This document shows, in pieces, positions 1,296 through 26,700 of a DNA stretch of 58,017 nt. This DNA comes from a virus (Duplodnaviria > Caudoviricetes): IMG/VR virus record IMGVR_UViG_3300044993_000766, positions 1 to 58,017 of that record, one strand, 5' to 3'. A model generated the notes under the pieces. The model had not been told where the DNA came from. It saw only the letters and a program-made list of their open reading frames with translations, and made no database searches. How positions within the stretch are numbered: the first letter of the stretch is position 1; each line of letters starts with the position of its first letter. The position numbers were made by a program, and so were the translations under genes.

Positions 1296-4200
1296 TTAGC
1301 CGCCGCCCCCACCGCCGCCATCACCACCCCCACCGTCGCCTTGTGGTCCTTGTGCCGGCGACATTGAGCGCGCGCCCATCCGCATCGTCGGCCCCTTTGG
1401 ACCATCATCGTCCTGCTGCATCGCAATCTGCTGCGCCTGCTCCATCGCATGCTCGCGTGCTTGCATCACAGCCTGGGAGACAACGGACGACTGTTCAAGC
1501 GACTGCGATAGCGCCTGCTCCACGTTAATCGGAACCCGTCGATGCGCGGGGTCATCCAATGAGCCCTGTACGACAAAGAGCGTATCTGGGCGTCCTGTCT
1601 GCGGGTTAACCTTGCCGGGCACGATGTGGTCGTAGCTGGTTATGTTCCATCCTTCGGCCGCCAACGACATAGCCACAACAGATGCACCTAGCTTTTGGCG
1701 CTCATGCTGGGTCAGGCCACCCATGCCGGGGGCAACCTCGATCTGCGACAGAACGTTTTGCGCCCGTAGATACATGCCGTGGGCCGCATGCTTGGGTTCT
1801 GTGACGAGCGGGCCAGCCGACGATGCTGGCTCGGAGGTCGGCGTGTGTCCATGACGCTGATCGTCGGTCGGCTTGTGGTCCTCCTCGCGCTCGTCCCGCA
1901 TCGATGGGGGACGGATTAGCGCCGGATCGGGTGTAGTCGCAATTATCAAAGTAGAGGGCGCATCAATGCGCACGACCGGCTCCGGCTCACGCTCCTTGTC
2001 GTCTTCGACACTACGCCCACCTGAGATGGAAGGGCTGACAGAACGCGGTGCAATCACCGGTTGTGGCGCATCCGGTTCGGACTTTGGGTCGATCAAGAGC
2101 GAGCGGATCGGCGTTGCCTGTTCCGCGCGTTCGCGTTCGCGCTGTGCGGCTAAAGCTTGATCCACAGCATCGCGCGTTCCTTGATCGGCCACCCCGGTTG
2201 CGGGAATGCCATGCATCGTCTGAAACTGGCGAATAGCGTGCTCGGTTTCGGGACCATAGCGGCCATTCTGCGGGATCTGCTCTCCATCAGGGCCACGATA
2301 GCCCTGCCGATCAAGGCGGTATTGCAATAGTTCGACTGAATCGCCGCGGTCGCCCAAGCGCAATGCGTTCGAGTCAGGGCCAGTCGGTTTTTCAGCCGCG
2401 TCTACGCGGGTCTGTTGTGGAGGGATGTCATCGGAACGCGGAGTCAGGGAATCGGGCTGGCGTTCCGGGGTCGCAGATGTCGCTGGTGTCCCATCATGTC
2501 CGATGGTCCGCATAGAAGTCCGTCGGTCCTCGTCTAGCACCTGGGTCTCGTCTGCCCCCCCCTGTTGGGGGGTGTTGCTTTCGGCCTCCATGCGTTCACG
2601 TTCCAGTCGAGAGGCACCATCTTCATGCGCGCTCTGCGCGAGCGCCAATGCGGCCGTTGCCACGAGTGGCACTTCCTGGGTAACGGCATCCTCCGGCATG
2701 CGTTCAGGCCGATGTGTACGCTCCGGCTCGCCCTGAATAGCACGCACCGCACCATTTTCCATCGTCATCCCGCGTGAAGCGACCGCTAGCGTCGCCGCTT
2801 GAACTGTCTCCTGCGTCTGTTCCTGAGACAGGCCTAGCCGGTTCGCTTCGCGCGCCGCCTGCTCGCGTGCGCCGCGCTCCTCCGGGGTCGCCAGTGCGAC
2901 TGCTCGCTCAAATGGCGCTGGGTACGGCGTATCCTCCGTTCTCGCACGCACATCGGCGAGCGCGCGATTGATGTCCTCTGGCGTTGTCACAGCGACGATA
3001 CGCACCACGCCGTCGGCATTCCGGTGGATATGATGAATCGGGCTGTCGGGGCTGTACTGCCCGCTCTCGTCTGTCCCCAGCACCGTCACTGTATTGTCGG
3101 GGCCTATCCCTGCGGCGGCTCTGGTGCGCTGCACAGCAAGGTAACTGGCCTCGAACAGTTCAGGCCGAATCTCACGGTTGATGTCGTGATCCAGGTACGC
3201 TGTGCGTAACAAGGCGCGATCCGCCTGCTCTGGCGTCGGTGGTTGCCAGGACGGCATCCGAGCCAGTTCTCGCTGGTGATCTTGTAGCGCGGGCAGCATA
3301 CGATCACGGGTCAGTTCCAGCTCTAGCGCACGTTGTGCATCTGCCGGTGCGCCGTCATGTATCCATGTCCCTTGCGTATCGCGCCGGTAATGCTTTCCGT
3401 CGGAGGCTTGACGCAGATCGGGGTCAAGTGCGGTCGTCACGGCCGCAGGCATGGTATCCGCTGGTGAGGGAGTCTGGTCGTAACCATAAGCCTTATGCCC
3501 TCGCTGATATTGGGCTGCGATTTCGGCCGAGCTTGCCCTCAGGTTTGCGTCGATGACCCGTACAGCCTGCGCACTCAACTGAGCAGCACGCTCGGGATCG
3601 GCCACGGTACGCTCGACATCGACTGGCATGCGTTCGTTGTCGAGCTTCGTTACGATCCAACGCTCCCACTCACCGCTATCGGCCTTGTAAGTCCAGTTCG
3701 CCGGCGTCTGCCCCAAACTGCTGCGATCTTGTGCATTTGCGGGCTGCACGAAAGGATCAATCGGCTCGGGCACTTTGGCGATGGCCAGTTCCACGGCTTT
3801 TGCACTCGCCAGAGCACTCAACTCGCGGTGCTTGTCGGGCGGGGCCGCAAAAGATTGCTCTTGCGGAATATCGCGACCGTCATCCAGCAAGTCACCACGC
3901 AAATCCTGACGAATCCACTGCTTGCCCGTGTACTTCCAGTTCACGCCCTCACTGGCGATATTGGTGATTCCGTACTGTTGCCACCAATCCACCGCGCGCT
4001 CGGCAGCGGTACCGAATAGGTATGCCTCGCCGAGCACGAGCAGCGCTGTGCCGCCCGTGCCCGTGCCTAAAGCCGCAGCGGTGGTGGTCGCAGCAGCGGC
4101 GCCAACGACAGCGCCCGCGGTTTGAGCGCCTTGGCGCAGATATGCGTCGTTCCCTGCGGTTTCGTTGCCGAGTGTATTTTTGAATACCTCTGCACGCTGG

Positions 4201-6479
4201 TGGGTCTGCGCCCATTCATAGCCAGTCAACCCAACCTCAAGCAGTACACCACCTACCGCCGCGCGGCGGATTCGGGCTCGCTCGATTGCTTCTGGCTCAT
4301 AGGGCAGCAATTCCACCTTCGCCTCACGCGACAGTCGGGCCATCAATCCTTCAACACCTGCCTGTTCAGGTGGGCCAACGTGCGGCGTCCGCTCCACCGG
4401 GCGTGCCAGCGTTTGCAGGCGTTGCGTCATTTCACTGGCCGGTTCGGGCGCCTGCTCTGGGGTATGCACCACCTGCCCGGGCCGCACAATATGGGTGTAG
4501 TCGGGCACCAGTTGCTTAACTTCGCCCGCAGGCGTACTGCGGTCTATCTTCGGCCAATGGCGGAACAGGGCATTGCCTTCTGTAGAATGGTGAATCACGT
4601 CCATTCGGGGGTCGATGGTTTCCGGTACCCGTTGGAAGATCGGTTCACCCGTCAATGCATTACGGAAATCCGTCATCAGGTTCAGGCTGCGGTCGCCCAA
4701 GCCGCTGCGGAAGTAACTCCCCGCGAGGTCCGAATGCGCGCCTGCCACTGTGACGCTCAAGAACCGTTTATCCGCAGAGTGCCCCTCGGGAATGATGCGG
4801 TCCACCGGGAACAAGCCGCGTTGCTCGTCCGCCGCATTGATTTGGAAACCTGAGACTACCGAGGGCGGCAGACGGCGGTCAAAAAAATCTTCCAGGTAGC
4901 CCGTCGGTACCGGGTCGTACAGGCCGACCGACATGGGCACTTGCCCAGGCGTGATGTGATGGCGCGTATATGTCCTGACCGTATTGCCGTGCTCGTCGAG
5001 GGATTCGATCGCGCTGCTGGGGTCGGGGAAGCCGCGCTCATGGATCATCCGGGCCAGCAACGGTACGGTGCTGGCACCCCGGCTGAAGCCTTCGAGATGG
5101 ATACTGATCCGGGCCTGCGGATCCGCTTTGAGTATCTGGTTGATGCGCTCTGCTAACTCCGCATACATATCTTCGGCGCGCGCCAGCGACGTGCGCCCCA
5201 GCGCACCGTCCACGGTATTTTCGATGAGGTTGGTCTGTGTGCCTGGGCCGGCACGATATACGAAATCAACATTCGTGAGTCCATCCCTACGTAAATCTCT
5301 GATTTGTTCACGCAATTTCGCGACATTCGTGGCATGCAAGGGATCGCGATCCACATCGTTGCCCGTGCCATCCAGCAGACCGAACAGCATGTAAGAATGC
5401 CGGTCGTTACGATCCCACAGCGCCGGCACTTTGAATTCGCGCATCTGCGCAGCGGCGCGGTCGTAACTCTGGAGCTGCTCGCGGCTTGCGATGTCGTGCG
5501 GCACATCATCATAGGGCAGCCCATCTGCGTCCAGCCTGATCCGGGTTTTCCCTGACGCCGCATTCGCTATCTTGTCATCCAGCGCATCGAGTGTCCTCGT
5601 AATTGTGGACCTGGGCGCGGATAGCAGATTCGCTGGTGACGAGTCAGGCGACGGTGCGCGCAAAGCATCAAGATGGCGCATGCCTGCTTGCGCGAAATCG
5701 CTGGGTGGGGCCATCCGGTCGGCGAGCGGCCGAGTGACGACCGTGAAAGCCGGCGGCTGCGCAGTCAGAGCCGTCCCAGTAAAATAAGCGCGGCTATCGA
5801 TCAATAATTGCCCTGCATCGCTATATAGCGGTTTTCCGGCATCGTTGACGGCCACATTCAGCTTGCCCACATTCTCATAAGAACGCGCCTGCACAGCCTC
5901 GAATGCAGCGTTGCCACCGCGGTCGGCTTGAAGGTTCGCCAAACTGATGCGGTCGATGTCTTCGATGGTGGTGACACGCTCGTTCGCCAGCACGCGCGGA
6001 AGCTCGCTCGCCCCGAACACGCGGTCCGGCTGGGCGAAGCTGGTGATGGTCCGCACCTCACCCACCGTCTCGGCCGCGAACTTGGCCGAAACGATGTCCC
6101 AGGCGCCGTCCGCGATGCGCTTGCCGTCCGGCCCGATCGTCCCGAACAGGAACTGGTTCGCTTTCGTTCCACTCTCCAGCGGGTCGCTTTCGAAGACGCG
6201 CTCCAGCGTCTCGATCAGTTGCTGATTGCGGCTTCTTTCCGAGTACACATCCAGAAACTTGAATGCTTCGGTCTTGTCGAGAACGCGCACGTCTTCCCCA
6301 GCACTCAGCATACCGCTGATGATTTCGGTCGATGCGATCTCCGGTGCTAACCTGCCGCTGTAGAGAACAGTGACAGACCCCTGTGCCTGAACATCCAACC
6401 TGCTGATGAGCGCGCGCAGTTCCGCTTCCGATTTGATGCCCGGTAATTCGGCATTAGCCTCGGCCGACGAAATATCCAT
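1296..6479 (-). CDS. Xanthomonadales T4SS effector (X-Tfe): ARC-like N-terminal domain, Tle1/DUF2235 phospholipase, PG-binding domain, C-terminal XVIPCD
   Basis: DGTGND, GFSRGA and GAHSD Tle1 motifs; LRLGDRGDSVELLQYRL...YGPETEHAIRQFQ PG_binding_1 signature; LFVVQGSLDDPAHRR...ALSQSLEQSS plus Q-rich tail typical of XVIPCD; GAGG RBS. Confidence 0.88.
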   Translation of the reverse strand: MDISSAEANAELPGIKSEAELRALISRLDVQAQGSVTVLYSGRLAPEIASTEIISGMLSAGEDVRVLDKTEAFKFLDVYSERSRNQQLIETLERVFESDPLESGTKANQFLFGTIGPDGKRIADGAWDIVSAKFAAETVGEVRTITSFAQPDRVFGASELPRVLANERVTTIEDIDRISLANLQADRGGNAAFEAVQARSYENVGKLNVAVNDAGKPLYSDAGQLLIDSRAYFTGTALTAQPPAFTVVTRPLADRMAPPSDFAQAGMRHLDALRAPSPDSSPANLLSAPRSTITRTLDALDDKIANAASGKTRIRLDADGLPYDDVPHDIASREQLQSYDRAAAQMREFKVPALWDRNDRHSYMLFGLLDGTGNDVDRDPLHATNVAKLREQIRDLRRDGLTNVDFVYRAGPGTQTNLIENTVDGALGRTSLARAEDMYAELAERINQILKADPQARISIHLEGFSRGASTVPLLARMIHERGFPDPSSAIESLDEHGNTVRTYTRHHITPGQVPMSVGLYDPVPTGYLEDFFDRRLPPSVVSGFQINAADEQRGLFPVDRIIPEGHSADKRFLSVTVAGAHSDLAGSYFRSGLGDRSLNLMTDFRNALTGEPIFQRVPETIDPRMDVIHHSTEGNALFRHWPKIDRSTPAGEVKQLVPDYTHIVRPGQVVHTPEQAPEPASEMTQRLQTLARPVERTPHVGPPEQAGVEGLMARLSREAKVELLPYEPEAIERARIRRAAVGGVLLEVGLTGYEWAQTHQRAEVFKNTLGNETAGNDAYLRQGAQTAGAVVGAAAATTTAAALGTGTGGTALLVLGEAYLFGTAAERAVDWWQQYGITNIASEGVNWKYTGKQWIRQDLRGDLLDDGRDIPQEQSFAAPPDKHRELSALASAKAVELAIAKVPEPIDPFVQPANAQDRSSLGQTPANWTYKADSGEWERWIVTKLDNERMPVDVERTVADPERAAQLSAQAVRVIDANLRASSAEIAAQYQRGHKAYGYDQTPSPADTMPAAVTTALDPDLRQASDGKHYRRDTQGTWIHDGAPADAQRALELELTRDRMLPALQDHQRELARMPSWQPPTPEQADRALLRTAYLDHDINREIRPELFEASYLAVQRTRAAAGIGPDNTVTVLGTDESGQYSPDSPIHHIHRNADGVVRIVAVTTPEDINRALADVRARTEDTPYPAPFERAVALATPEERGAREQAAREANRLGLSQEQTQETVQAATLAVASRGMTMENGAVRAIQGEPERTHRPERMPEDAVTQEVPLVATAALALAQSAHEDGASRLERERMEAESNTPQQGGADETQVLDEDRRTSMRTIGHDGTPATSATPERQPDSLTPRSDDIPPQQTRVDAAEKPTGPDSNALRLGDRGDSVELLQYRLDRQGYRGPDGEQIPQNGRYGPETEHAIRQFQTMHGIPATGVADQGTRDAVDQALAAQRERERAEQATPIRSLLIDPKSEPDAPQPVIAPRSVSPSISGGRSVEDDKEREPEPVVRIDAPSTLIIATTPDPALIRPPSMRDEREEDHKPTDDQRHGHTPTSEPASSAGPLVTEPKHAAHGMYLRAQNVLSQIEVAPGMGGLTQHERQKLGASVVAMSLAAEGWNITSYDHIVPGKVNPQTGRPDTLFVVQGSLDDPAHRRVPINVEQALSQSLEQSSVVSQAVMQAREHAMEQAQQIAMQQDDDGPKGPTMRMGARSMSPAQGPQGDGGGGDGGGGGGG

Positions 6480-14745: not shown

Positions 14746-17700
14746 TCATTCACCGCCAACACCTTCTTCTTCAGCAATTCGCTGCCGCAGTGCCGCATCG
14801 TAGGCAACACCGTTTTCGGCCCGTTTGCTGTATGCCTCACGCGCGCGCAGCGAGCGGCGGATGGTCTGCCCAGTGATGGGCTTTTCGGGGTACGCCTTGT
14901 TGAAGGCCAGTATCTTCCGGCGCACTTCGAGTGCCGCGTCCTGATCGTCCATACGCAGCGCCATGGCATAGGCCGCCAACAGCGCCTTGCGACGGTCGAG
15001 AATGTGTCGCTCGCGGTCCTTGAGTGCGCGATTCACGGCGTACTGCCGCGCCACTTCGGCCGGCGTGAAGCCGATGGCCTGCAAGAATTCATCCTTGAAG
15101 TCGGTATCGGTCACGAGGTCGCCGCGCGTGGAGGTGACGCCTTCTTCGGCATAGCGCAGCGCCTTCATCGCATCCTTGAGCGCCTTGGGCAACATGGTCT
15201 CCACACCGCGATAGACCTGACCTTCGGCAATCAACTGCGTGCCGACAAAGAAGTTTTTTGCGATGCCGAACATCGGCCCCGCCACGTTGTCCATCATGGC
15301 GTAGTAGGCATCGCGGCCGTCCAGTTCGCGATCGGCATCGCGCCACAGCAGTTGCGACATTTCCACGCGGCTGGCGATGTCGGCGCCCGTCAGTGTGTTC
15401 GCTGCACCGTTCATTGCGACTTCCGCGCCAGCTTCACCCAGAAACTGCGCGAGGAATTTGCGGATTTCGGCCTCGGTATCCCACGGGTCGTCCTCATCGC
15501 CGAATGCATGCGCGATAGCGTCGATCACGCCGATGGACAGCGACGCCATCGGCAGGCCCATCGCGCCGGAGAAAAAACCACTCATGACCAGCACACCAGC
15601 AAGATTGCGCCGCGCCAGCCGGCGCACTTCGGGGCTGTCGCCTCGGGTCGCCTTCCAGCCCATACGGCCCAGGTGCCAAAGCATGTTCAGACCGTACTGC
15701 TTGAACATCAGCACGATCTTCGCTGGCCCCGATTGCAGGTAGCGTGCGCGGTTAGCGTTGCTGTAGTTGAAGTGGGTCGCGGTAATGGTGTCGGCCGCAA
15801 AACGCACGGCGGCATCGAATGATTGCCCCGCGTCGCGCGCAAGGCGATAGGCCGCCATGCCGGACGCTTCGCGGTTCAGCACTTCTGCGGTGTGAAACAG
15901 CCAGCCGATGAGTTCCATCGCGCGCGCCAGCTTGGGGTTGTAGGTGGCAAGACCGCCCTCGGCCAGCCCCATCAGCGCGTGGGTCTGCGTCTTGTCGAGC
16001 ACACCGGCCTGCTGCAAAGCGGCGTGGGCTTTGACCTCATCCGGGCGCTTGAGCACCTTCTGCGCATGTCCGGCCGTGCGCGCCGAGTCGTTCATGGCGC
16101 GCATGAGGTGGCGCATGGCGTTCGCCGGGCCGAATTGCGACGCCAACTGCGGGAAGGTCAGGACGGCGGTCTGAGTGAGGTTGACCAGCGCCGCCGCTGG
16201 CGTCACACCCAGGAAGTAGACAAAGCCGATCGAGGACAGACGGTTGGTCATCGCGCTGTCCTGCGGATTCAGCACCCACTGGTGACGCTGATCCAGCTCG
16301 CCGAGGATGGCGTCCATCGCGACGACAGCACGGGTGTCGGTGTCCGGCTCGCGCCTGCGAATATCCTGCGCCTCACGCAGATCCGCCAAGGTGCGCTCCA
16401 GCACATGCCCATACCGCAGCCGCGCGAGCTGATGCGCGCCATGTGCCATGTTGTGAGCGAAGGCGCGCAGCGCATCAGGATCGAAGCCGGCGACGCCTTG
16501 CCGGTGGATCGCATGCTTGCGCATCGACAACTCCGGCAGCGTTTGCAGGTAGGTTTGATAGATCGCGTCCTGCGTTTTCTCCGACACACCGGCTTTACGC
16601 AGTTGTTCGATCACGTCGGCGACGAACGAGCCGCTGGGCGCGTCCTTGGCTTGCGCGCCGCGCAGCCGACCGCGAGCCTTGACCGCGAATCCGCGCGCCT
16701 TGAACGCCGCTTCCCTGCGCTCAAGCGCGGCCGGACTGTCGAGCATGAGAAACACCGGCTCGCCGTCGCGCTCGGCCGCTATGAAGTATTCGCCGTATCG
16801 CTGCAAGGGGAAGTAGACGCCCTGAAGGCGATGGGTCTCGAACTGCTGTCGAATCGAAAACACCAGCTTGCGCTTGAGGCCGTCCGGCGCCTCGCTGGCT
16901 TCGATGCGCTGAGCGAGCGCGTCTTCGACTTGCTGGGAGCGGTCGCGGTACAGGTTACGCATCTGCCGGTAGAAGCCCTGCGCCTCCGGCGACAATGCCT
17001 GCCACTGCGCGCGAAGCGTCGGGTAGATGCGCTTTCGGGATTCCTCGCGCCCCGGCATGCCGCGCAAGCGGCGGGCTTCTTCCATCATGTCGATCTTGTT
17101 GTCGGCGCTGCGCCCGAGCATCTGCTCGCGCAGGGCTTTGAGCGCCTCGCGGATATTCTTGCGATTAGCATCGTGCAACTGCCCGCCATAGCGGAATTGC
17201 AGCACCTGGTACGCCTCGGCCGGATCGACGCCTTCGAGCGTCGCCCGGTGCATCAGATCGAACAAACGCTTGGCCTCGGCCTTGTGGCGTCCGGCCCAGC
17301 GGCGGACGCTCTCGGCGAGGTCCGCACCCTCCTCCAGCAGTGCGTTACGGTCGGCCGACATGGCGTCGAGCTGGCGGGAGAATCCGGCGATGGCCGGGTC
17401 GTAGTCGCTGCCCAGTTCGGTCAGGTGGTTGGTGGCCAGTGCGCCCAGCCAGACGCTGCGGCTGGCGTCCTTGAGTTTGGCCGGGGTGCTGTCGCGCAGC
17501 CACTGTCGCACGCGATCAAGCCGGCTTGCGTCTTCATCCTGCCGCACTACGGCGTCCACGTCGGCCAGAAAACCCTCCGGCGCACGCCGGCTGAACATCG
17601 GCAACCCCTCCGCGACGGCGGTCCGCATGGCGGGTGTGATGTCGAGGGCGTGAACGTCCAGTGGAGGCGACCGGAAGCGCGGACGAATCTGTGCGGTCTT

Positions 17701-20700
17701 CGCCTGCCCACCCAACGGACGCGCCCACCGGTTGACCACCGCAGGCAGGATGCCGTCGTAGTAGCCGCCCATGCCGGCATCGCCCAGGTGGAGCGAGAGC
17801 GCATCCAGACGCCGCAGAGGCGTGCCACGCGAGCTGCCGCGCGGGGATAGGTCGCCCTCGCCCGCGCGGACGCGCGCGGCCACCTTGGCACCCAGCAGCG
17901 AGGACAGCAGGTTCGCCGGCACCTCCATTTCCCGCACCACGTCGCCCTGCTTCAAGCCAGCGACGCGGAACGCGCCCGAAGGCATGGGCATATAGTCGAT
18001 GGCATCGACCTGTTCGCCCCGCGAATAGCGCGAGGTCTGCTGCGCGCCGGTCGTCCAGCCGATGCGCTGGAAGCCACGTTCGGCCGCCATCCGCACCATG
18101 CGTTTGATCGCAAGCAACGTCCAGTCTTCGGTGGACTTGAAAGGCGCGTCAGGTGCGACGTTGCGATCGGCGCTTGGACGATACCCGTAGCGCCGGCCGT
18201 GCTGGTGCCAATCGGACTGGATCTCCTCAATGAACAGCATGCGCTTGCCGTCCACGTCCTCGCGCTCGTTGTAGCGGATGTGGACAAGGACATTCTTTAC
18301 AGAGGGGTAGTGTTCGCTATGGAAAGGTTCGTCGGGGTTGCGGCTCGATGGCTGCACCGGAAAAGTCAGGAGCAGTTCGCGGTACTCGCGCCCGCCTTCC
18401 ATCTGGTAGCTCGCGTATCGGCCTTCCGCAGAAACGAATGGCGCAGTTGTTTCTATGCCCGCCGAAAGGGTTTCAAGATCGTGCCTCTGCGATTCGGTCA
18501 GTGTGCGCTCATCGACTTCCTGGCCGTCACGCATGAGAGCAACGCCATACGACGGAAGCGTTTCGATCTCGAACCCCGCTGCCTGCAATCGATCCAGCGC
18601 CGCGTCGTAGCGGGCGACATCTCCGCCGATTTGCTGTTCGCCGATCCGCACCTGATGGGTGCGCACGAAGTCGGTCAGCGCCTCGCGTGTGATCCGCGCT
18701 TCTCCGGTTACGCTTTCCCGTGTAGTCAGCCAAACATCGACATCGAGCCAGTCGCGTTCCGCCTGCTTGAATCCACCGCGCCGCTGTACGCCATCCAGCC
18801 ATTGTTGCCACTGCTCAGCGGTTCCCCGCCGCGGTGCGCCTTGGGCGCGCTCCAGCGCCTGCAACAATGCCGAGCGAAAGCCCTCCACGCGCGAAAACGC
18901 TGGTGCCATCGACTCTTTGAGTGACAAGGCACGCTCGCTGCCGCCCAGCCGAACCTGCCTCGCGGCACGCATGACCAACTGACGAAGCTCAGCCTCCGAG
19001 AGCGTCCAGCGCACGCCGAGCTTGCGCAGGAACGCGCGCACGGCCGCGACGACACGATCAAGCACGGAATCCTTCACACCTCTCTCGGCCAGAATCGCGA
19101 TGAACTCGGCAATGGCCGTACTGTCCCAGCCGTTATCCAGGTAGCCACGCCGCGCGTGCTCGGCGAACAGGTCGCGATAGCGCCCCTTCTCTCGCAGACG
19201 ATGGACGCCTTCGGCGATCTGCGCCCACTGCGCCGGCCCGACGATGGTTTCGATGCCGTAGTGACCGATGGCCTCGTGGATCAGCACACGCTGGACGGCA
19301 CGCCGGTTCGGCAGCGCACTGGCCACCAGATAAACAGTGCCCGTGCTGCGCGCGTAATAGCCTTCGGCGAGGTGAACATCCGGCGCGCGCCGCGCTGAAG
19401 CCGGCAGATAGTCTGGGGTTGCGACGACACGCACCACGGGCGCCCCCTTCCAGTCCACCAGCATCTCGTCCACGACCCGCTGCACCTGGGCAACGCTCGC
19501 GCCAGCAGCGGCTGGGTTGCGGCGTTTGCTGAAAGCTCCGGCGTCATCGTCCCGCTGCTGCTGGTAGTCCAGCAGCTCGTCCAGCGCATCGCTGAACCCA
19601 GCCTCGCGCAGCGCCGAGCGCTGCGCCTCCAGCGCCGCATCGAGCATAGGCCGCTCATGCTCGGGAATCTCCGGCCCGCGCACCAGCAACAGCCGCTGCA
19701 CGCGACGATACTGCTCGCGTGCCTCGCGCAACGCCTGTGTCTGCTCGAAAGGCTTGGCGGCTTCGGCCCTGAAGCGTTCGGCCTCGCCTCGGGCGTTCTC
19801 AATACGGGCTTCGGTATCTACGATTTCCGCGCCGATCCGGTCGATATAGTTGTTCAGCCGAGTCAGCAGGCCGGTGGCCGAAAAGGTCTGCGCACCACGC
19901 TCGTAGCTCGTGACCTCGCCCAGATCGGACGACACGCGCACCCATTGGGCATGCACACGATCAATCTCGAAGGTCACGCCGCGATAGGCGAGTTCCACCG
20001 GACTTGCTGCGTCGCTCGGACCGATCAGCGCGCCAACGCGCCGGGCAATAGTCTGAGTCAGCGCCTTGCGCTCCCCGAACCGGGCACCGTCCAGCGTAGT
20101 ACCGCCGGGCACCGCCTCCTTGTCCTCGGGCAAGGGGTGTTGCTTGACTTGGGCTTGCACCTCGCGCAATGCCTTCAGGTAACGCGGGCCACCCATCGCG
20201 GCGTACTGCTCGGCCGTGCGCGCCTGCCGTTGCAGGGCCGTCTGGTTATCGGCGTGCGCCAACTCCAACTGTTCCAGTCGGCGCACGTCATGGCGCAACT
20301 GGGTCTCGCGCAGGATCAGCGGGTCTCCCGACGCGGCGGCCTTCATTTCGGCTGCATTCGCCGCCTCGCCGTCGATGTCCTCGATTTCGGTCTGTTGGCC
20401 GTCGTATTTGCGCAACTGCTCGATGCCGCGCGCCTTGTGTTCCAATAATTGCCAGCGCCGGGTGTCGTAGGTCTGGCGGGTCGCGTAGCGATAGATCGCC
20501 ACCTCAAACCCGTCCGGGTCGCGCTCGTAGAGCTGGTTGCCGCGTCGGATCGCTCGGCCTTCGCGCTGTTCCAGATCGCTCGGCTTCCACGGGGCATCGA
20601 TGTGGTGCAGGCCGACGATGCGATCCTGCACGTTGGTGCCGGCTCCCATCTTTGCGGTCGAACCGAACAGGAACCGCACCTCGCCGCTTTTGACGCGCTT

Positions 20701-23700
20701 GAACAGCTTGTCCTTGGCGTCGGGGTGCGGGTAATCGTGGATGAAGGCGATTTCGTTCGCGGGCACGCCGCCGGCGATGAGCTTGGCGCGCAGATCGTCG
20801 TAGACGTTGAATCCTTCCGCGCCGCTCAGGCCCACGATGTCCTGCAAACTGAGGCTGTCGCCGGCCTCGGCATCGAACCCATTGGCGTCGTTGTAGTCGT
20901 CGATTTCGGCTTGGCTCAGTTCCTGCCCGGCTTCGCGCTCGGCCTCACGTTCGGCGATCCAGCGTTCGCGACGGGCGGGATCGCGCAGGGTCTCCTGCGC
21001 CCAGGCCAGACCCTTGTCACGGCCGCCGGGCAAGATGCGTCGCGCGCGACCGGTCGCCGCGTCGTAGACGGTCGTCGTCGCCCTGGCCGCGGCACCGCGC
21101 ACCACCAGCAGAAACGGCAGTTCCTCCGCGCCCGCGACCGTGTGCGCCGTGCCGCTCGCATGCGCCAGACTGCCATCGTCCTCGCGCACGTAGACGCGCT
21201 GCGGCTTGGTCGCGGCGCTGCGTCGAGCCGTATTGGGCACCGACAAGTCGCAGAACACCAACTGCGTGCCCTTGTCGGCATCCCATTGCCGATACAGCGC
21301 CAGCATGCGCTCCAGCGCCAGATTGATCTTCGAGCCGCGGAAGTCCGGCGCCGCCGGGTCGATCAGCCGATAGTCCAGTCCTGCCTTGTTGGCCTGCCCG
21401 GTCAGGGAGAGCGCATTGACCCGGCCCTTGGTCTGCCGGGTCAACTCGCGGATGCGGGCGAAGCGGCCCAGGATCGACTCCGGGTTGAGGTCGATCTTGG
21501 GAGTCAGGGCCGCTTCCACGATGCCCATCTGGGCGTCCTCGCGCGTCGGATAGACCGCCAGGGCGCGCGGGTAGGCTTCGCCGGGCACCTCGATCTTGAC
21601 CCGGAAGCGGCCGTCTTCGGCCTCCTCGATCGTCGCCGTTTCGCCGCGCCCAGGATTGAAACCGAACACCACGCCGCCGCCCTCACTGCGCGCCAGATGC
21701 GGGACACCCATGAACTCGGCCACCTGTGGCGAGCGTTCGGCCACCACGATCTGCGGGCGGCCACCCAGCAGGTTCGGAACCGGGAAGCGCCCGCCCTTGG
21801 CCGCTTCCTGGGCCTTGAGGTCGTCCAGCGTCACCACGTCCGCGAACGCGCGGTAGTCGGCCATCAGTGACGGCAGGTTCTGGAACTTCGCAAAGCGGGT
21901 CGAAGCACGGAAGCCGGCGCCGGAGGGCGCGACCTCGTACACGTTCTCGATGCTGCCGTACTGCCGCGCCCAGGCATCGAAGACGTGCAAGTCCTTGCGC
22001 TTGAGCGTCGGGTATTGCATGTACCGCTGGAGGTTGAACATTTCGACCAGCGAATTGCTGACCGGCGTACCCGTGGCTGTCACCAGCGGCGCCTTGTCGC
22101 CCAGCGTCCCGAACAGCCACTGCGTCTTGACGAACAGATCGAACGCGCGATCGGAGCCGTTCGGATTGCCCATGCCGGGCACGCGCGACATCGCCGTGGT
22201 GTAAAACAGGTTCTTGAATTCATGAAGTTCATCGACGAACAGGGCATCGACGCCCAACTCGTCGAAGGTCAGCACGCCGTCGCGTTGGCCGATGTTCGCC
22301 AGCTTCTGCTTGACCTTGGCCTCCAAGCGTGCGCGGATGCCCTCCATGTCGCGCACGATGCCGCGGTCGCCGCGCTCGCGCTTCATCTGTTCGATGAGGC
22401 TGGCGATCTCGTCGATCTGTTCGGTCAGGATGCGGGTCTCGGTCTCGGCCGGCAGCCCGATCTTCTTCAGCGAGGAATGGCCGACGATGATCGCGTCCCA
22501 ATCGCCGGTCACGATGCGGGAAAACAGCTTCTTGCGGTTCTCCCGCGTGAAATCGTCCGGTTCCGCCGCCAGCACCACGGCCCCCGGATACAGCCGGGCG
22601 AATTCGGTGCGCCACTGCACGGTCAGATGATTGGGCACGGCGAACAGCGGCTTGCGCGCGACACCGAGCCGTCGCATTTCCATCGCGATCGCGACCATCT
22701 GGAAGGTCTTGCCGGCACCGACGACATGATCGAGCAGCAGTTGACGCGATTGCAGGCCACGCCACACCCCGTTCTGCTGGTGCGCGAGCAGGGTCAGGCC
22801 GGGACTCATGCCCGGCAGGGTCAGATGACTGCCGTCGTAGCGCCGCTCGACGGTGCGGTTCATCTTGTCGTTGTAGAGCGCAAGCAGGCGCTCGGCCCGC
22901 TCGGGGTCGCGCCAAACCCAGGCCCGCCATTCGGCCCGCAGCGCGTTCTGTTTCTCGCGGGCGCGTTCGGTTTCGGCTTCCAGCACAATGCGTTCGATCT
23001 TGCCGTCGCCATGTTTGATCGTCTTGGTCACGACCACCGCGCGCCCGGCGAGGGTCGCCTGGAAAATCTCGGTCGCGCCCATCTCCTTCGTGCCCCAGGT
23101 CGAGGCATTCAGTACCCGATCCGGTTCGCCGACGACGTTCACCAGCCACAGGCCCGACCCGCGCACATAGGTCATGCGCGCGTTCGCGCCCGTCACCTCC
23201 CGATGGAAAGCTTGCAGATCCTCTGCCGGCAGGAACGGAGCGCCGAGCGCGATGGTGATCTCGCTGGGCGTCTTGTCGCGCGGAATGACCTTGGACAACG
23301 CCCCGACGTTGCGGGCGAAGCGCGGATCGCGCCGGGCCGCGTCCTTGGCTTCGACGAGCTTGGTTTTCACATCGCCCGACAGGTAGTCGTCGGCCGTGAC
23401 CAGATTGCCGTCCGGCGTTTCGTACACCAGCGGGCCGAGTTCCTTGACGAGCGCGGTACTGTCCTTGCCGTAGACCTCGGTCATGTAGTCCAGGTCCAGA
23501 CGGCCACGGTAGTTCAGGCTGGCGAGGTAGGCGTCGCGCGCACTGTGGACGGTCACGAAATCCGACGGCGGGAACAGCACGCGACGACGGAAGATATCGG
23601 CTTTCGTCGCCTTCGGGGCGCGCGGCTCGATGCCCTCGCGCTTGGCGACGGTCTCGCTCACGCCGGCGTCGTAGTCGAACTCCAGTGCCAGAAGCAGGCT

Positions 23701-26700
23701 GGCGTCCGGGTCGTCGAAGAACAGGCTACGGTTGGTCCGCGATGCGCTGAGGTGGCCGTATCGCTTGAGGAAGGCGTCATAGCGATCGTTGAGCAGACGA
23801 CGGTTGGCCTCGATCTGCGCCTCGCTCGCGTCCGCGGCGCGTTCCAGGCGCATCTGCTGGCGCAGCACGTCGCGAATCTCGATCATGCCGCGCATGCGCG
23901 CCTCGGCGGTCGCACCGGGCGCCGTCCACGGCGCCGCTTGCGGCTCGCCCATCCGGTCCTCGCCCCGGATCATGATCCGCCCCTCGGCGTCGATGAAGTA
24001 GGCGCCGACCTTCACCCCCTCGGGCACCGCACTGGCGGTCATCGCCTCGGTGCGGTCGATCGGGCTGTAGATGCCCTCCGGCAACGTCCGCGCCCATGCC
24101 GTCAGTTGCGCGGCCAGATCGCCGGAAGGGGCGACGGTGTAGTCGTTGGCCCGGTACATGGTGCCGCCGGCCGTCTGCGTGCCGAGGATATGATCCGGGT
24201 GATCGACGTACCAGGGGTTGATGCGGAAGGAGAACGTCTCGCCCGTGGTCGGGTGTTCTAGCGTCTGTTCGACGGTCTGCACCCAGCGCAGGCGCGCGGC
24301 CCGCGTGTCGTCGCTCGGCGGGTCGGTGTCCGGGGCGCGCTTCTGGAGCACGATGATATCGGTCACGACCTCGGTGCCGGCGTTCTCGGCGAACGCGGTG
24401 TCGGGCAGGCGCGCGGCGGCGATCAGATCCGCCCGCTCCGCGATCCACTGCCGCACGCGACTGTCTTTGGCGTCCAGAAACTGACGCGACACCACCATCA
24501 TCAGCACGCCGCCCGGCCGTAGCTTGTCGATCGACTTGGCGAAGAAGTAGTTGTGGATGCTGAAGCCCGAATACGGGCTGCGCTCAGAATCGACGATGGG
24601 TTCGCTACCGAAGGGCGGATTGCCGATCGCCACGTCGAAAAATTCGCTCGGGACCGCCACGTCCTGAAACCCGCTCTGGCGAATGTGCGCTTTCGGATAG
24701 AGCGCGGCGGCGATTTGCTGGGTCAGCGGATCGAGTTCGACGCCGTAGAGCGTGGAAGCGTTCCGCAGCTTCGCCGGCATCCCGCCGAAGAAATGGCCAA
24801 TGCCGACCGCCGGTTCCAGAATGCGCCCGCGGGTGACGCCCAGACGCACCAGTGCGGAGTACATGCCGTCGATCACGGGCTTGCTGGTGTAGTGGGCGTT
24901 GAGCGTGGACGCGCGCGCCGCGCGCCATTCGGCATCCGTCAGCAGGCCCTGAAGCTCGGCGCGGACTTTCGCCCATTGGGCATTGGCCGGATCGAAGACG
25001 CCCTTCAGCGCACCCCAACCGACGTAGCGCGCGAGTTGGCGACGCTCTTCCGGCGACGCCGGCCGCTGTTCGGCGGCCATCGCCTTGACGATGCGGATCG
25101 CAGCGAGATTGTCCCGCGCCTTGCGCGCGAGCCCGCCTTTGCCCAGATCGTCGGCCAAGCCCTCGACGGCCTGCTCGGCTGTATCCACTTCCGTCGCGGT
25201 GGCGGCGACAACGCCGGCCTCTGGCCCCGCGGCAGGCTCGGCCTGCGGCGACGCGGTCTCGGCCACAACGGAAGAGGCCGCAGGATCGTCGATCGCTGCG
25301 GCCTCTTGGGTCAGGCGCTCTCGCTGCCCGGTTCGGGCGGAGGGGGATCGTCGTCGTCGGTCGTTGGTGGCTCCAGCGACAACTCCCACACCTGCGCCTT
25401 CTCCCAGCTCGACAGATGATTCAGGCTCGTATCGGCCTTCGCCCGTTCCTCCTCGGCGGTCTGGTTCGCCAGCGCCTCCAGGTAGTATCCCGACCGGATC
25501 AGTTTCTGCACCCGCTTGGGCCAACCCAGCATCCAGCGGTTCGCGACCTCGCGCGCGGTCGGCGACATCGCCAGCAGTTTCGCGCGCACGTCGGGGGGAT
25601 AAAGTTTCGGTTTGACCAGTTCCTGCATCGGTGGTGTCCTCCGGGTTGGCCTCGTCCGATCGCGCAGCTCGCGCTTGTGGGAAGGTCGTAGTGTCAGTTT
25701 GCGTCGAAGCGCCGCCAGACGGAAGCGGCTCGGACGCGCGCGAGGGGCTCGCTGCGATCTGAATATCCGCCCACAGGCGGTTGGTGCTGCTGGAGAAGGT
25801 GACGATGCCACCATCCACTGCATAGCGCGCGCCGAACCGACCACCGCTGTTGACCGCGCCAGCCCGCTCGAACGCCGAGCGAAGCGCACCCAGCGCGTTT
25901 TCCACCTCGGTGACGTGGCTGAAGGTTGCCGGAAACGCCACCCGCCCCGGCTGACCGGAACGTACCTGAGCCACTAGATCGTCCACGAATGCGGCCAGGA
26001 TCGTGTCGTTGCCGCTTGGCGAAGGCGCGTCGCGCATCGCCCGCGATGCGTCCAATGGCGTCACCGCGTCGCGCCTCTCCATCGCGACAGGTGCTTCCTC
26101 TATGCCCGCAGCGCGGGCCGCCGAGGCTTCGATCTGCGGCTCGATCTTCGTCCATCGCTCCGACCACGGCACCTCACGGCGCTGCTCGATTTTGCCCTTA
26201 TGACTGACGGTGATCGTGGTATTGGGGTCCAAGCGCACCCAAGGGAAACCGGATTTCTCGTAGAGAGTGCCGCGCGCAGTCTCGGAGGTGCCCAGCAGTA
26301 GCGACATGGAGGTCGCCTGTACCCGATCGCCGATCGCGAGGCCCGCAGCAGCTAGCGCCTGCATCCGGCGTCCACGATGCCCGTCATTGGAGGCGTCGGC
26401 CAGTCGTTTGAGAATCGGAAATAGTCGGCCGTACTCTTGGGTCGCACGGTATCGTTTCAAACCGCCAAAGGCCCGCGCACGCTTCTCCTGCCACTGCCGC
26501 GCATCTGCATAGCTGGCGAAATCGGGGAAGGTTTCCACAGGCGCACGCTGTTCCGCCTCGCGCCGGGCGCGACGTTCGGCGTCGCGGGCCAGTTCTGTCG
26601 CGCGATCTGTGCCAGCCCAGCGAAAGATCGCGTCCTCCGTCGCGCCGCGTCCACGCGGCAGCCGGATACCGGTCGCCGCAGTGAACACTGCGCGACTGGC

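Follow-up and report, generated by a model that had tools for sequence, protein, structure and literature searches.

The stretch of DNA considered here (the window, 58,017 nucleotides (nt) forming part of the IMG/VR provirus record IMGVR_UViG_3300044993_000766) contains a giant open reading frame (ORF) predicted to encode a polyvalent DarB-like methyltransferase-helicase. A second ORF of 105 codons lies wholly within it, on the same (minus) strand and shifted by +1 from the giant's own frame, which we call the host frame (Table 1). We posit that this small ORF is, with high probability, a true protein-coding gene lying out of frame within the giant gene. Its nesting, the purifying selection on it, its own start signals and a host frame kept open across it together fit an embedded same-strand gene read in a second frame.

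The nested reading frame and its host

The small ORF runs from an ATG at 25628–25626 to a TGA at 25313–25311, the minus strand leading into the start as ...CCCGGAGGACACCACCG-ATG, and its 105-amino-acid (aa) translation is MQELVKPKLYPPDVRAKLLAM...HLSSWE...SESA. A first-pass annotation made from the letters of the window had pointed to a nested 105-aa frame at this place, with the main frame across it reading as low-complexity linker, and both parts of that description were confirmed. The host-frame peptide across the small gene, DAGTGQTETLSPRRARETAGD...GQRERLTQ, consists to 88% of G/S/P/T/D/E/R/A/Q/K/N and is 12% hydrophobic, compared with 27% for the giant as a whole, and a median of 11% is found for the corresponding peptide in 47 nested loci. 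An AlphaFold2 (AF2) model of giant aa 1000–1400, computed on alignment A4, has a predicted local distance difference test (pLDDT) score below 50 and no secondary structure over its residues 42–262. The AF2 model of the small protein has five helices and a mean pLDDT of 75.

Table 1. Features of the window discussed in the text, with positions counted from its first nucleotide
Feature	Position	Strand	Remarks
Nested small gene (putative)	25311..25628	-	ATG, 105 codons, TGA; predicted helical protein, ~90 conserved residues plus acidic, proline-rich tail
Shine-Dalgarno sequence GGAGGA	25637..25642	-	8 nt 5' of the small-gene ATG, within the giant ORF
Giant host ORF, 4724 aa	14746..28920	-	Predicted polyvalent DarB-like methyltransferase-helicase; lies among the virion/internal-protein genes of a podovirus-like prophage
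Host-frame read-through of the small gene	25309..25629	-	Giant aa 1098–1204; low-complexity, apparent passenger linker
Predicted-disordered linker of the giant, containing the overlap	25138..25800	-	Giant aa 1041–1261; AF2 on alignment A4
Module/recombination boundary just upstream of the Shine-Dalgarno sequence	25643..25650	.	Variants share the small gene and the methyltransferase-helicase and diverge upstream
Start of predicted N6-methyltransferase module	24427..25125	-	Homology common to all relatives from giant aa 1266; Pfam Eco57I at aa 1418–1498
Predicted superfamily 2 (SF2) helicase module	20539..22752	-	ResIII/SNF2-like at aa 2051–2158; Helicase_C at aa 2724–2794
LPD39, large polyvalent-protein-associated domain	16807..17493	-	Giant aa 3810–4038; E 2.8e-26, 92.8 bits
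Upstream neighbour, transglycosylase-like, 251 aa	28920..29675	-	phrog_4067, E 3.7e-21

The small protein belongs to a conserved family of its own, whose members occur on mobile elements. A search for homologous proteins returned 21 relatives at E<=1e-3 among 26 candidates, 90–115 aa long and 46–86% identical. When 1.84 billion cluster representatives were searched with a profile built from 40 diverse members, 133 matched at E<=1e-3, and almost all of these are 50–170 aa in length. The motifs ANRW.LGWP and HLS..E recur across the family alignments; the residues shared in alignments A1 and A2 are Y10, a block A-N-R-W-x-L-G-W-(P), V40 and E60, while H-L, E76 and P-P are nearly invariant, and the median isoelectric point of the family is ~5. 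None of the 133 representatives is an in-frame fusion of the small protein to a large one; the sole long profile match, P0122 (2809 aa), was rejected as a fusion, its matches being weak and directed to a repeat. Searching the ESM Atlas with the small protein gave unnamed clusters only, and a profile search of the PDB sequences gave no match at E<=10.

For comparison of the DNA we assembled 100 loci, namely the window, 2 plasmid records, 3 genome contigs, 20 IMG/VR contigs and 74 metagenome contigs, numbered L001 to L100 where a single locus has to be told apart. Some of them depart from the common form of the small gene. Two free-standing copies (L034 614–1105 and L037 179–682) carry a C-terminal extension of ~70 aa, acidic at first and then helical-looking, for a total of 163–167 aa. 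In L008 (5695–5961) and L031 (257–565), and likewise in L009, L030 and L032, the giant ORF holds a second, shorter paralogue, which shares the +1 frame of the first and is found ~300 nt upstream of it; it has its own Shine-Dalgarno (SD) sequence, ATG and stop in L008 and L031, is degenerate in L007 (5704–5868) and L029 (671–832), and is absent from the window. On three short contigs (L098 604–874, L099 219–489 and L100 701–966), of which L098 and L099 are low-coverage by name, the small gene is divided over two frames, these splits being either frameshifted copies or read errors.

Selection on the two frames and conservation of the nesting

Over the overlap, the ratio of non-synonymous to synonymous substitution rates (dN/dS, estimated by the method of Nei and Gojobori, NG86, in 45 close pairs) is 0.07–0.72 in the small frame and 0.86–2.15 in the host frame. 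When the window is compared with six relatives, mismatches peak at host position 3 outside the small gene and at host position 1, which is position 3 of the small frame, inside it (rates inside the small gene of 0.23/0.15/0.10 and 0.32/0.16/0.16). A 60.7-kb metagenome contig from an independent run (X9), 97% identical to the window, covers 24900–26094 with 36 substitutions and no indel. Eleven of the 34 listed substitutions fall in the small ORF; 9 of these are synonymous when read in the small frame, and 10 change the amino acid in the host frame. Of the 23 outside it, 14 are synonymous in the host frame. The dN/dS values, the flip in the phase of substitutions and the X9 contig all point to the small frame as the one on which purifying selection acts in the overlap, as the first-pass annotation had supposed, and the host frame appears to behave there as a passenger linker. 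The GC content at codon positions 1/2/3 (GC1/2/3) is 0.67/0.47/0.83 in the small frame, 0.70/0.50/0.79 in the giant overall and 0.83/0.67/0.47 in the host frame of the overlap.

The small ORF is complete in 95 of the 100 loci, and the frame +2 from it, which is the host frame, is open over its whole length in 68 of those 95, the frame +1 from it in none. Methyltransferase-helicase homology downstream of the small gene was scored by tblastn with the giant protein. In all 60 loci with such homology the host frame runs open through the small gene at a constant offset, and the methyltransferase homology itself lies in the host frame and begins 3–100 nt past the small stop in most loci. The first-pass annotation had proposed to check whether homologues sit before or within DarB-like genes; wherever this methyltransferase-helicase is present they sit within. 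The 35 complete loci without methyltransferase-helicase homology, 11 of which have less than 600 nt of contig downstream and so leave the absence of the methyltransferase undemonstrated, comprise 27 in which the host frame is closed and 8 with a short open stretch only. In L012, an in-frame stop at ~6750 interrupts the methyltransferase-helicase ORF 147 codons past the small gene while the homology runs on for 5 kb; this stop represents a nonsense mutation, a pseudogene or a sequencing error.

Six further loci are nested, among them that of the cultured Pseudomonas phage 8P, which was the sole match at E<=0.01 when 50,697 phage records were searched by tblastn with the small protein. A reverse survey starting from the methyltransferase domain (79 IMG/VR loci) recovered the nested gene in 21 of 21 loci at a methyltransferase identity of at least 57% and in none of the 58 loci at 44% or less. 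The nested gene is thus fixed in one clade of DarB-like proteins rather than scattered among them.

The probability of an open host frame was estimated with the small protein sequence held fixed and its synonymous codons either permuted or drawn from the codon usage of the host ORF. In the window, 7.5% of 5000 synonymous permutations and 3.6% of 5000 host-usage draws leave the host frame open, as do 0–68% of permutation trials in other lineages. For 14 lineage representatives less than 60% identical to one another, permutation puts the joint chance that the host frame is open at 10^-11.4, and host usage puts it at 10^-24.2. Three loci (L083, L071 and L052) have a small gene of 46–49% GC and a permutation chance of 0.007 or less, and their host frame is open nonetheless. 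Synonymous choice in the small gene is biased toward a host frame without stops. A chance ORF, an assembly artefact and a relic were accordingly rejected as explanations of the small ORF, on the combined grounds of dN/dS, substitution phase, the X9 contig, the 60 open loci of 60 and the joint chance.

Translation and origin of the small gene

Among 77 distinct aligned small ORFs, 75 start with ATG and 2 with GTG. The SD sequence of the window forms a duplex with the anti-SD sequence of -9.5 kcal/mol against a local background of -2.7, and the mean duplex energies of nested loci are -7.5 (n=37) and -8.5 kcal/mol (n=10) against a background of about -2.9, with free copies at -5.2. A scan of the small frame for the canonical slippery heptamer X XXY YYZ (Y being A or T), which covered -1-type sites, found none in 48 nested loci. 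A scan of 25000–26400 for sigma-70 promoters and terminators returned no sites, a result that is uninformative for an internal promoter in DNA of 64% GC.

The host frame is open across the whole small gene and for 60 to more than 1800 codons upstream of it. In the plasmid loci and others with a short N-terminus, the host ORF starts 60–134 aa upstream of the small gene with an SD sequence of its own, and these upstream-started ORFs share a conserved N-terminal domain opening with MQ[LF]D[LFM]FG, for which a Pfam scan of the plasmid type gave no family. We take this opening to resemble the beta-sliding-clamp-binding consensus QL[SD]LF. The domain spans ~120 aa and is found in L001 (7604–8000, NZ_CP021369.1) and L002 (1356–1773, NZ_CP026547.1), and also in L052, L071, L083, L087, L062 and L064.

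The host ORF is surely meant to run through the small gene. For the small protein, independent internal initiation is inferred to be the simplest mechanism because the ATG is conserved, the SD sequence is strong and a canonical slippery heptamer is lacking. One stretch of mRNA would then yield two products: ribosomes translating the giant ORF would read it as part of a disordered tether of ~220 residues joining variable N-terminal modules to the methyltransferase-helicase, and other ribosomes would initiate at the internal SD sequence and ATG to release the free small protein.

At the module boundary just upstream of the SD sequence, contigs of two runs (X1 and X10) part ways in their assembly graphs at 25647. 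L007, which is the closest relative, is 97% identical to the window from giant aa 1071 onward and 45–56% before it. The block consisting of SD sequence, small gene and methyltransferase-helicase behaves as a recombination module. In free-standing loci, the small gene follows a relaxase (MobA/VirD2 with LPD7, or TraI-like AAA_30) and precedes an Rv2179c-like exonuclease, or an HsdM methylase in L059. Free copies of the L063 group are 72–77% identical to the nested copies of L062 and L064, with homology running only from ATG to stop, and have 1–2 stops in the other frame. A tree based on 91 columns, unrooted and poorly resolved, interleaves nested and free states with 14 changes, of which at least 5 are forced by well-supported branches, and the most divergent members on long branches (L092, L066, L093 and L097) are free-standing. 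Other DNA methyltransferases were also observed beside the small gene in unrelated contexts, where the neighbours are an HsdM type I methylase, an Eco57I-like methylase and a cytosine methyltransferase (L059 4456–5910, L078 2–1951 and L001 5728–7455); this hints at a recurrent link with DNA modification.

The likeliest origin of the arrangement is the engulfment of a pre-existing gene. A small gene just upstream of the methyltransferase-helicase would have been read through upon fusion of an upstream ORF, and the polyvalent proteins of phages and plasmids would then have exchanged the block of SD sequence, small gene and methyltransferase-helicase as a single module. We clearly prefer this to birth in the linker, since the offset is single and fixed, the small frame has a native codon signature, free-standing branches lie deep and a free-standing state exists. 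The first-pass annotation had left the choice between a gene swallowed when modules fused and true overprinting; the former has gained from the 27 free-standing loci with a closed frame and from the genome-typical GC1/2/3, and the latter is retained as the weaker alternative. De novo overprinting, by which the small gene would have been born in the unconstrained linker of the giant and later have escaped onto conjugative elements as a free-standing gene, seems to us unlikely. A disordered, unconstrained linker would be a permissive cradle for such a birth, one offset shared by all nested copies fits a single origin within the methyltransferase-helicase clade, the tree shows the two states interleaved, and homology between nested and free copies that stops at the gene borders implies that the gene can move as a unit. 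Genome-typical GC1/2/3 is however found in the small frame and not in the host frame of the overlap, the product is well conserved, rich in W/Y/L and modelled with five helices, unlike typical young overprinted products, the long-branch members are free-standing, and methyltransferase-helicases at 44% identity or less are devoid of the small gene.

Rather than being initiated independently, the small frame could be part of a frameshift isoform, either reached by a +1 shift from the giant frame, so that an N-terminal part would end in this domain, or joined to the methyltransferase-helicase by a -1 shift near its stop. The geometry permits it, the host frame being -1 from the small frame and the methyltransferase homology following so closely on the small stop, and SD-like sequences stimulate frameshifting at prfB and dnaX. 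We regard this isoform as very unlikely given the lack of a canonical heptamer in the nested loci, the retention of start codon and SD sequence at initiation spacing, the free-standing relatives that begin at the same Met and the lack of any true in-frame fusion among the 133 representatives; a -1 shift near the stop would, moreover, have no need of a host frame that runs open through all of the gene and far upstream. Less likely still is a selfish homing-type insertion of the kind described in mycobacteriophage ShiLan, in which the small ORF would supply the mobility function of an insertion tolerated by read-through in the methylase gene. Such an insertion would agree with the stop-free host frame, with homology that ends exactly at the gene borders and with the occurrence of the gene in unrelated contexts, and the ShiLan account provides a phage-methylase precedent (PMC11855218). 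It is hard to reconcile with the scans of Pfam, PHROGs, NCBIfam and PADLOC, which gave no nuclease or other family beyond a sub-threshold oMTase match, with invariant residues that form no Cys/His metal-site pattern in the family alignments, and with a distribution that is not disjunct but follows methyltransferase identity (21 of 21 against 0 of 58). The least likely of the explanations weighed is that the giant ORF is in truth three genes (an upstream polyvalent gene, the small gene and a methyltransferase-helicase gene) whose fusion is an illusion caused by an open off-frame in GC-rich DNA or by an assembly error. Off-frame ORFs do run long in DNA of 64% GC, the open-frame chances over the gene of the window alone (0.075 and 0.036) are not small, and separate small and methylase genes are annotated in two plasmid relatives by the Prokaryotic Genome Annotation Pipeline (PGAP). 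Yet the same frame is open in 60 of 60 loci, including small genes at 46–56% GC and the three loci of very low permutation chance, the joint chance amounts to 10^-11 to 10^-24, and ribosomes must read on where there is no stop codon; the independent contig has no indels, and the N-terminal domain of the plasmid ORFs, with its own SD sequence, lies upstream of the small gene and in the methylase frame.

Several points weigh against an engulfed and separately translated gene, in addition to the short contigs among the loci without methyltransferase homology. Scans of Pfam, PHROGs, NCBIfam and PADLOC gave no significant family for the small protein, PADLOC yielding only the sub-threshold oMTase match in one of five members (E 0.0099, 13.5 bits). 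A Foldseek search of its AF2 model against PDB and BFVD returned nothing at E<=0.001, and a wide fold search with VIA-align reached a best Z of 4.8 with no row prominent. The kinship of the loci means that 60 of 60 overstates the number of independent events, and a single fixed offset fits one origin. The internal SD sequence could also be a by-product or a pause site. The unrooted and poorly resolved tree does not fix the direction of evolution between engulfment and de novo birth with later escape, and under prolonged selection a small frame of either origin would come to have a native codon pattern.

Genome setting, known embedded genes and possible function

The giant combines a predicted N6-methyltransferase module with an SF2 helicase module and DarB kinship, and can be classed on this domain evidence as a DarB-like polyvalent methyltransferase-helicase. 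The Pfam Eco57I match is significant (E 2.3e-7, 31.5 bits against a cut-off of 25.3) and an NPPF motif is kept in alignments A3 and A4; Helicase_C reaches 24.0 bits against a cut-off of 23.5, with ResIII (20.4 bits, cut-off 22.5) and SNF2 (16.8 bits) both below their cut-offs. The methyltransferase-helicase core is 35–45% identical over 700 aa to proteins annotated as 'DarB-like antirestriction' (PEp14, Bcep22, JC1 and others) and 27% identical over ~190 aa to darB of P1/P7. The neighbours of the giant are genes for an internal virion protein, a portal or adaptor and a transglycosylase, with DnaB and a replication initiator further on, and the listed end of the transglycosylase-like gene (28920) is the first base of the giant's ATG. 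Because of the domains of the giant, these neighbours and the provirus record, the setting is therefore that of a podovirus-like temperate phage. A second very large ORF of 1727 aa lies at 1296–6479 on the minus strand, with an endolysin/peptidoglycan-hydrolase-like stretch at aa 1332–1451 (PHROG, E 3e-10 to 6e-6); its product is probably another ejected or tail-associated multidomain protein.

Embedded out-of-frame genes are already known as a kind, of which the present case would be a further member with unusually strong comparative evidence. To our knowledge, few overlapping genes of phages and plasmids are well supported, and comparative proof is missing for most of those predicted. In the Rz/Rz1 pair of lambda-like and Bcep22-like phages, both frames encode functional parts of one two-component machine. 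The likeness to the present locus lies in a small same-strand gene placed wholly within a larger phage gene, in another frame and with its own start; the difference is that the host frame here behaves as a passenger linker with dN/dS at or above ~1, and that the small gene also occurs free-standing elsewhere. The product of comS is a 46-aa regulator. Its gene is embedded out of frame in the giant multi-modular srfAB of Bacillus subtilis (PMC8160284) and its expression rides on the transcript of the giant, a further likeness. In contrast to the present locus, comS lies in functional synthetase-domain sequence, whereas here the product is conserved, folded and ~90 aa long, the host stretch is a disordered tether between modules, and phages and plasmids alike keep the arrangement.

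The closest known case is ShiLan, in which an HNH endonuclease encoded out of frame is hidden in a read-through insertion of a mycobacteriophage DNA methylase (PMC11855218). In that paper, what is read in the host frame is taken for a loop that is tolerated, and the HNH ORF is described as homing, disjunct in distribution and without a detectable ribosome-binding site (PMC11855218). Both cases share a phage methylase host, a stop-free read-through in the host frame and a real protein in the other frame, but the small gene here has no nuclease signature, has a strong SD sequence and is fixed in its clade. Bcep22-like phage JC1, which carries a DarB-like giant, also has an embedded class Rz1 in Rz, and its DarB-like homologue gp69 is virion-associated by mass spectrometry (PMC9144972). 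The giant of the window, which includes LPD39, resembles DarB of P1 and the DarB-like giants of Bcep22-, PEp14- and JC1-like podophages in its core of N6-methyltransferase and SF2 helicase, and differs from those podophage giants in its small protein, which matched phage 8P alone among the phage records. A literature search turned up no account of an embedded gene within the gene for a DarB-like or polyvalent protein and no paper on phage 8P, and in the main text of the polyvalent-protein paper the words 'overlapping', 'frameshift' and 'out-of-frame' are absent, its supplementary architectures lying outside the comparison (Iyer et al. 2017, PMC5512222).

The prediction that annotation pipelines would miss the small gene holds in part. 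It is true of phage 8P, in which only the giant, as 'structural protein', is annotated, and phage annotators drop the small gene. It fails for the two plasmids NZ_CP021369.1 and NZ_CP026547.1, in which PGAP keeps the small gene and truncates the large one, placing the start of its 'N-6 DNA methylase' downstream of the former and leaving the upstream N-terminal stretch unannotated. What is cut from the large methyltransferase-helicase in this way is its true N-terminus, the conserved domain with an opening that we take to be clamp-binding-like.

The small gene associates with relaxases, polyvalent proteins and virion-internal giants, all of them proteins that enter a new host together with DNA, and recurrently with DNA methyltransferases. 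A tentative reading of these associations is that the small protein is an accessory or partner (or a chaperone or small regulator) acting with transferred or ejected DNA-processing proteins on entry into a new host; a small regulator, an anti-defence factor and other roles may account for it instead. Somewhat more doubtful is the narrower proposal that a whole pre-existing gene was recruited off-frame as the flexible tether of injected or transferred anti-restriction giants and kept dual-coding while a clade of phages and plasmids diversified, its product serving the methyltransferase-helicase as a dedicated partner, for instance as a regulator or as a chaperone for assembly or export. A complex prediction, run without controls, that paired the small protein (alignment A2) with the opening 700 residues of the methyltransferase module (A3) scored 0.00 against a mark of 0.32 and is evidence neither for nor against such a partnership. 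If the small protein were a dedicated partner, its embedding would guarantee co-inheritance during module shuffling and would have it made from the same mRNA just where the nascent giant comes out. In a bolder variant, the gene would have been born in the linker and emancipated onto conjugative elements later.

The locus offers a clean frame-specific signature of selection, nested and free states of one gene, dozens of diverged copies and, with Pseudomonas phage 8P, a cultured pair of host and phage. It also suggests one route by which polyvalent proteins may grow, namely by reading through a neighbouring gene whose off-frame becomes a disordered linker while the gene itself is retained. The unnamed small protein family, tied as it is to relaxases and anti-restriction enzymes, would join the candidate establishment or anti-defence factors.

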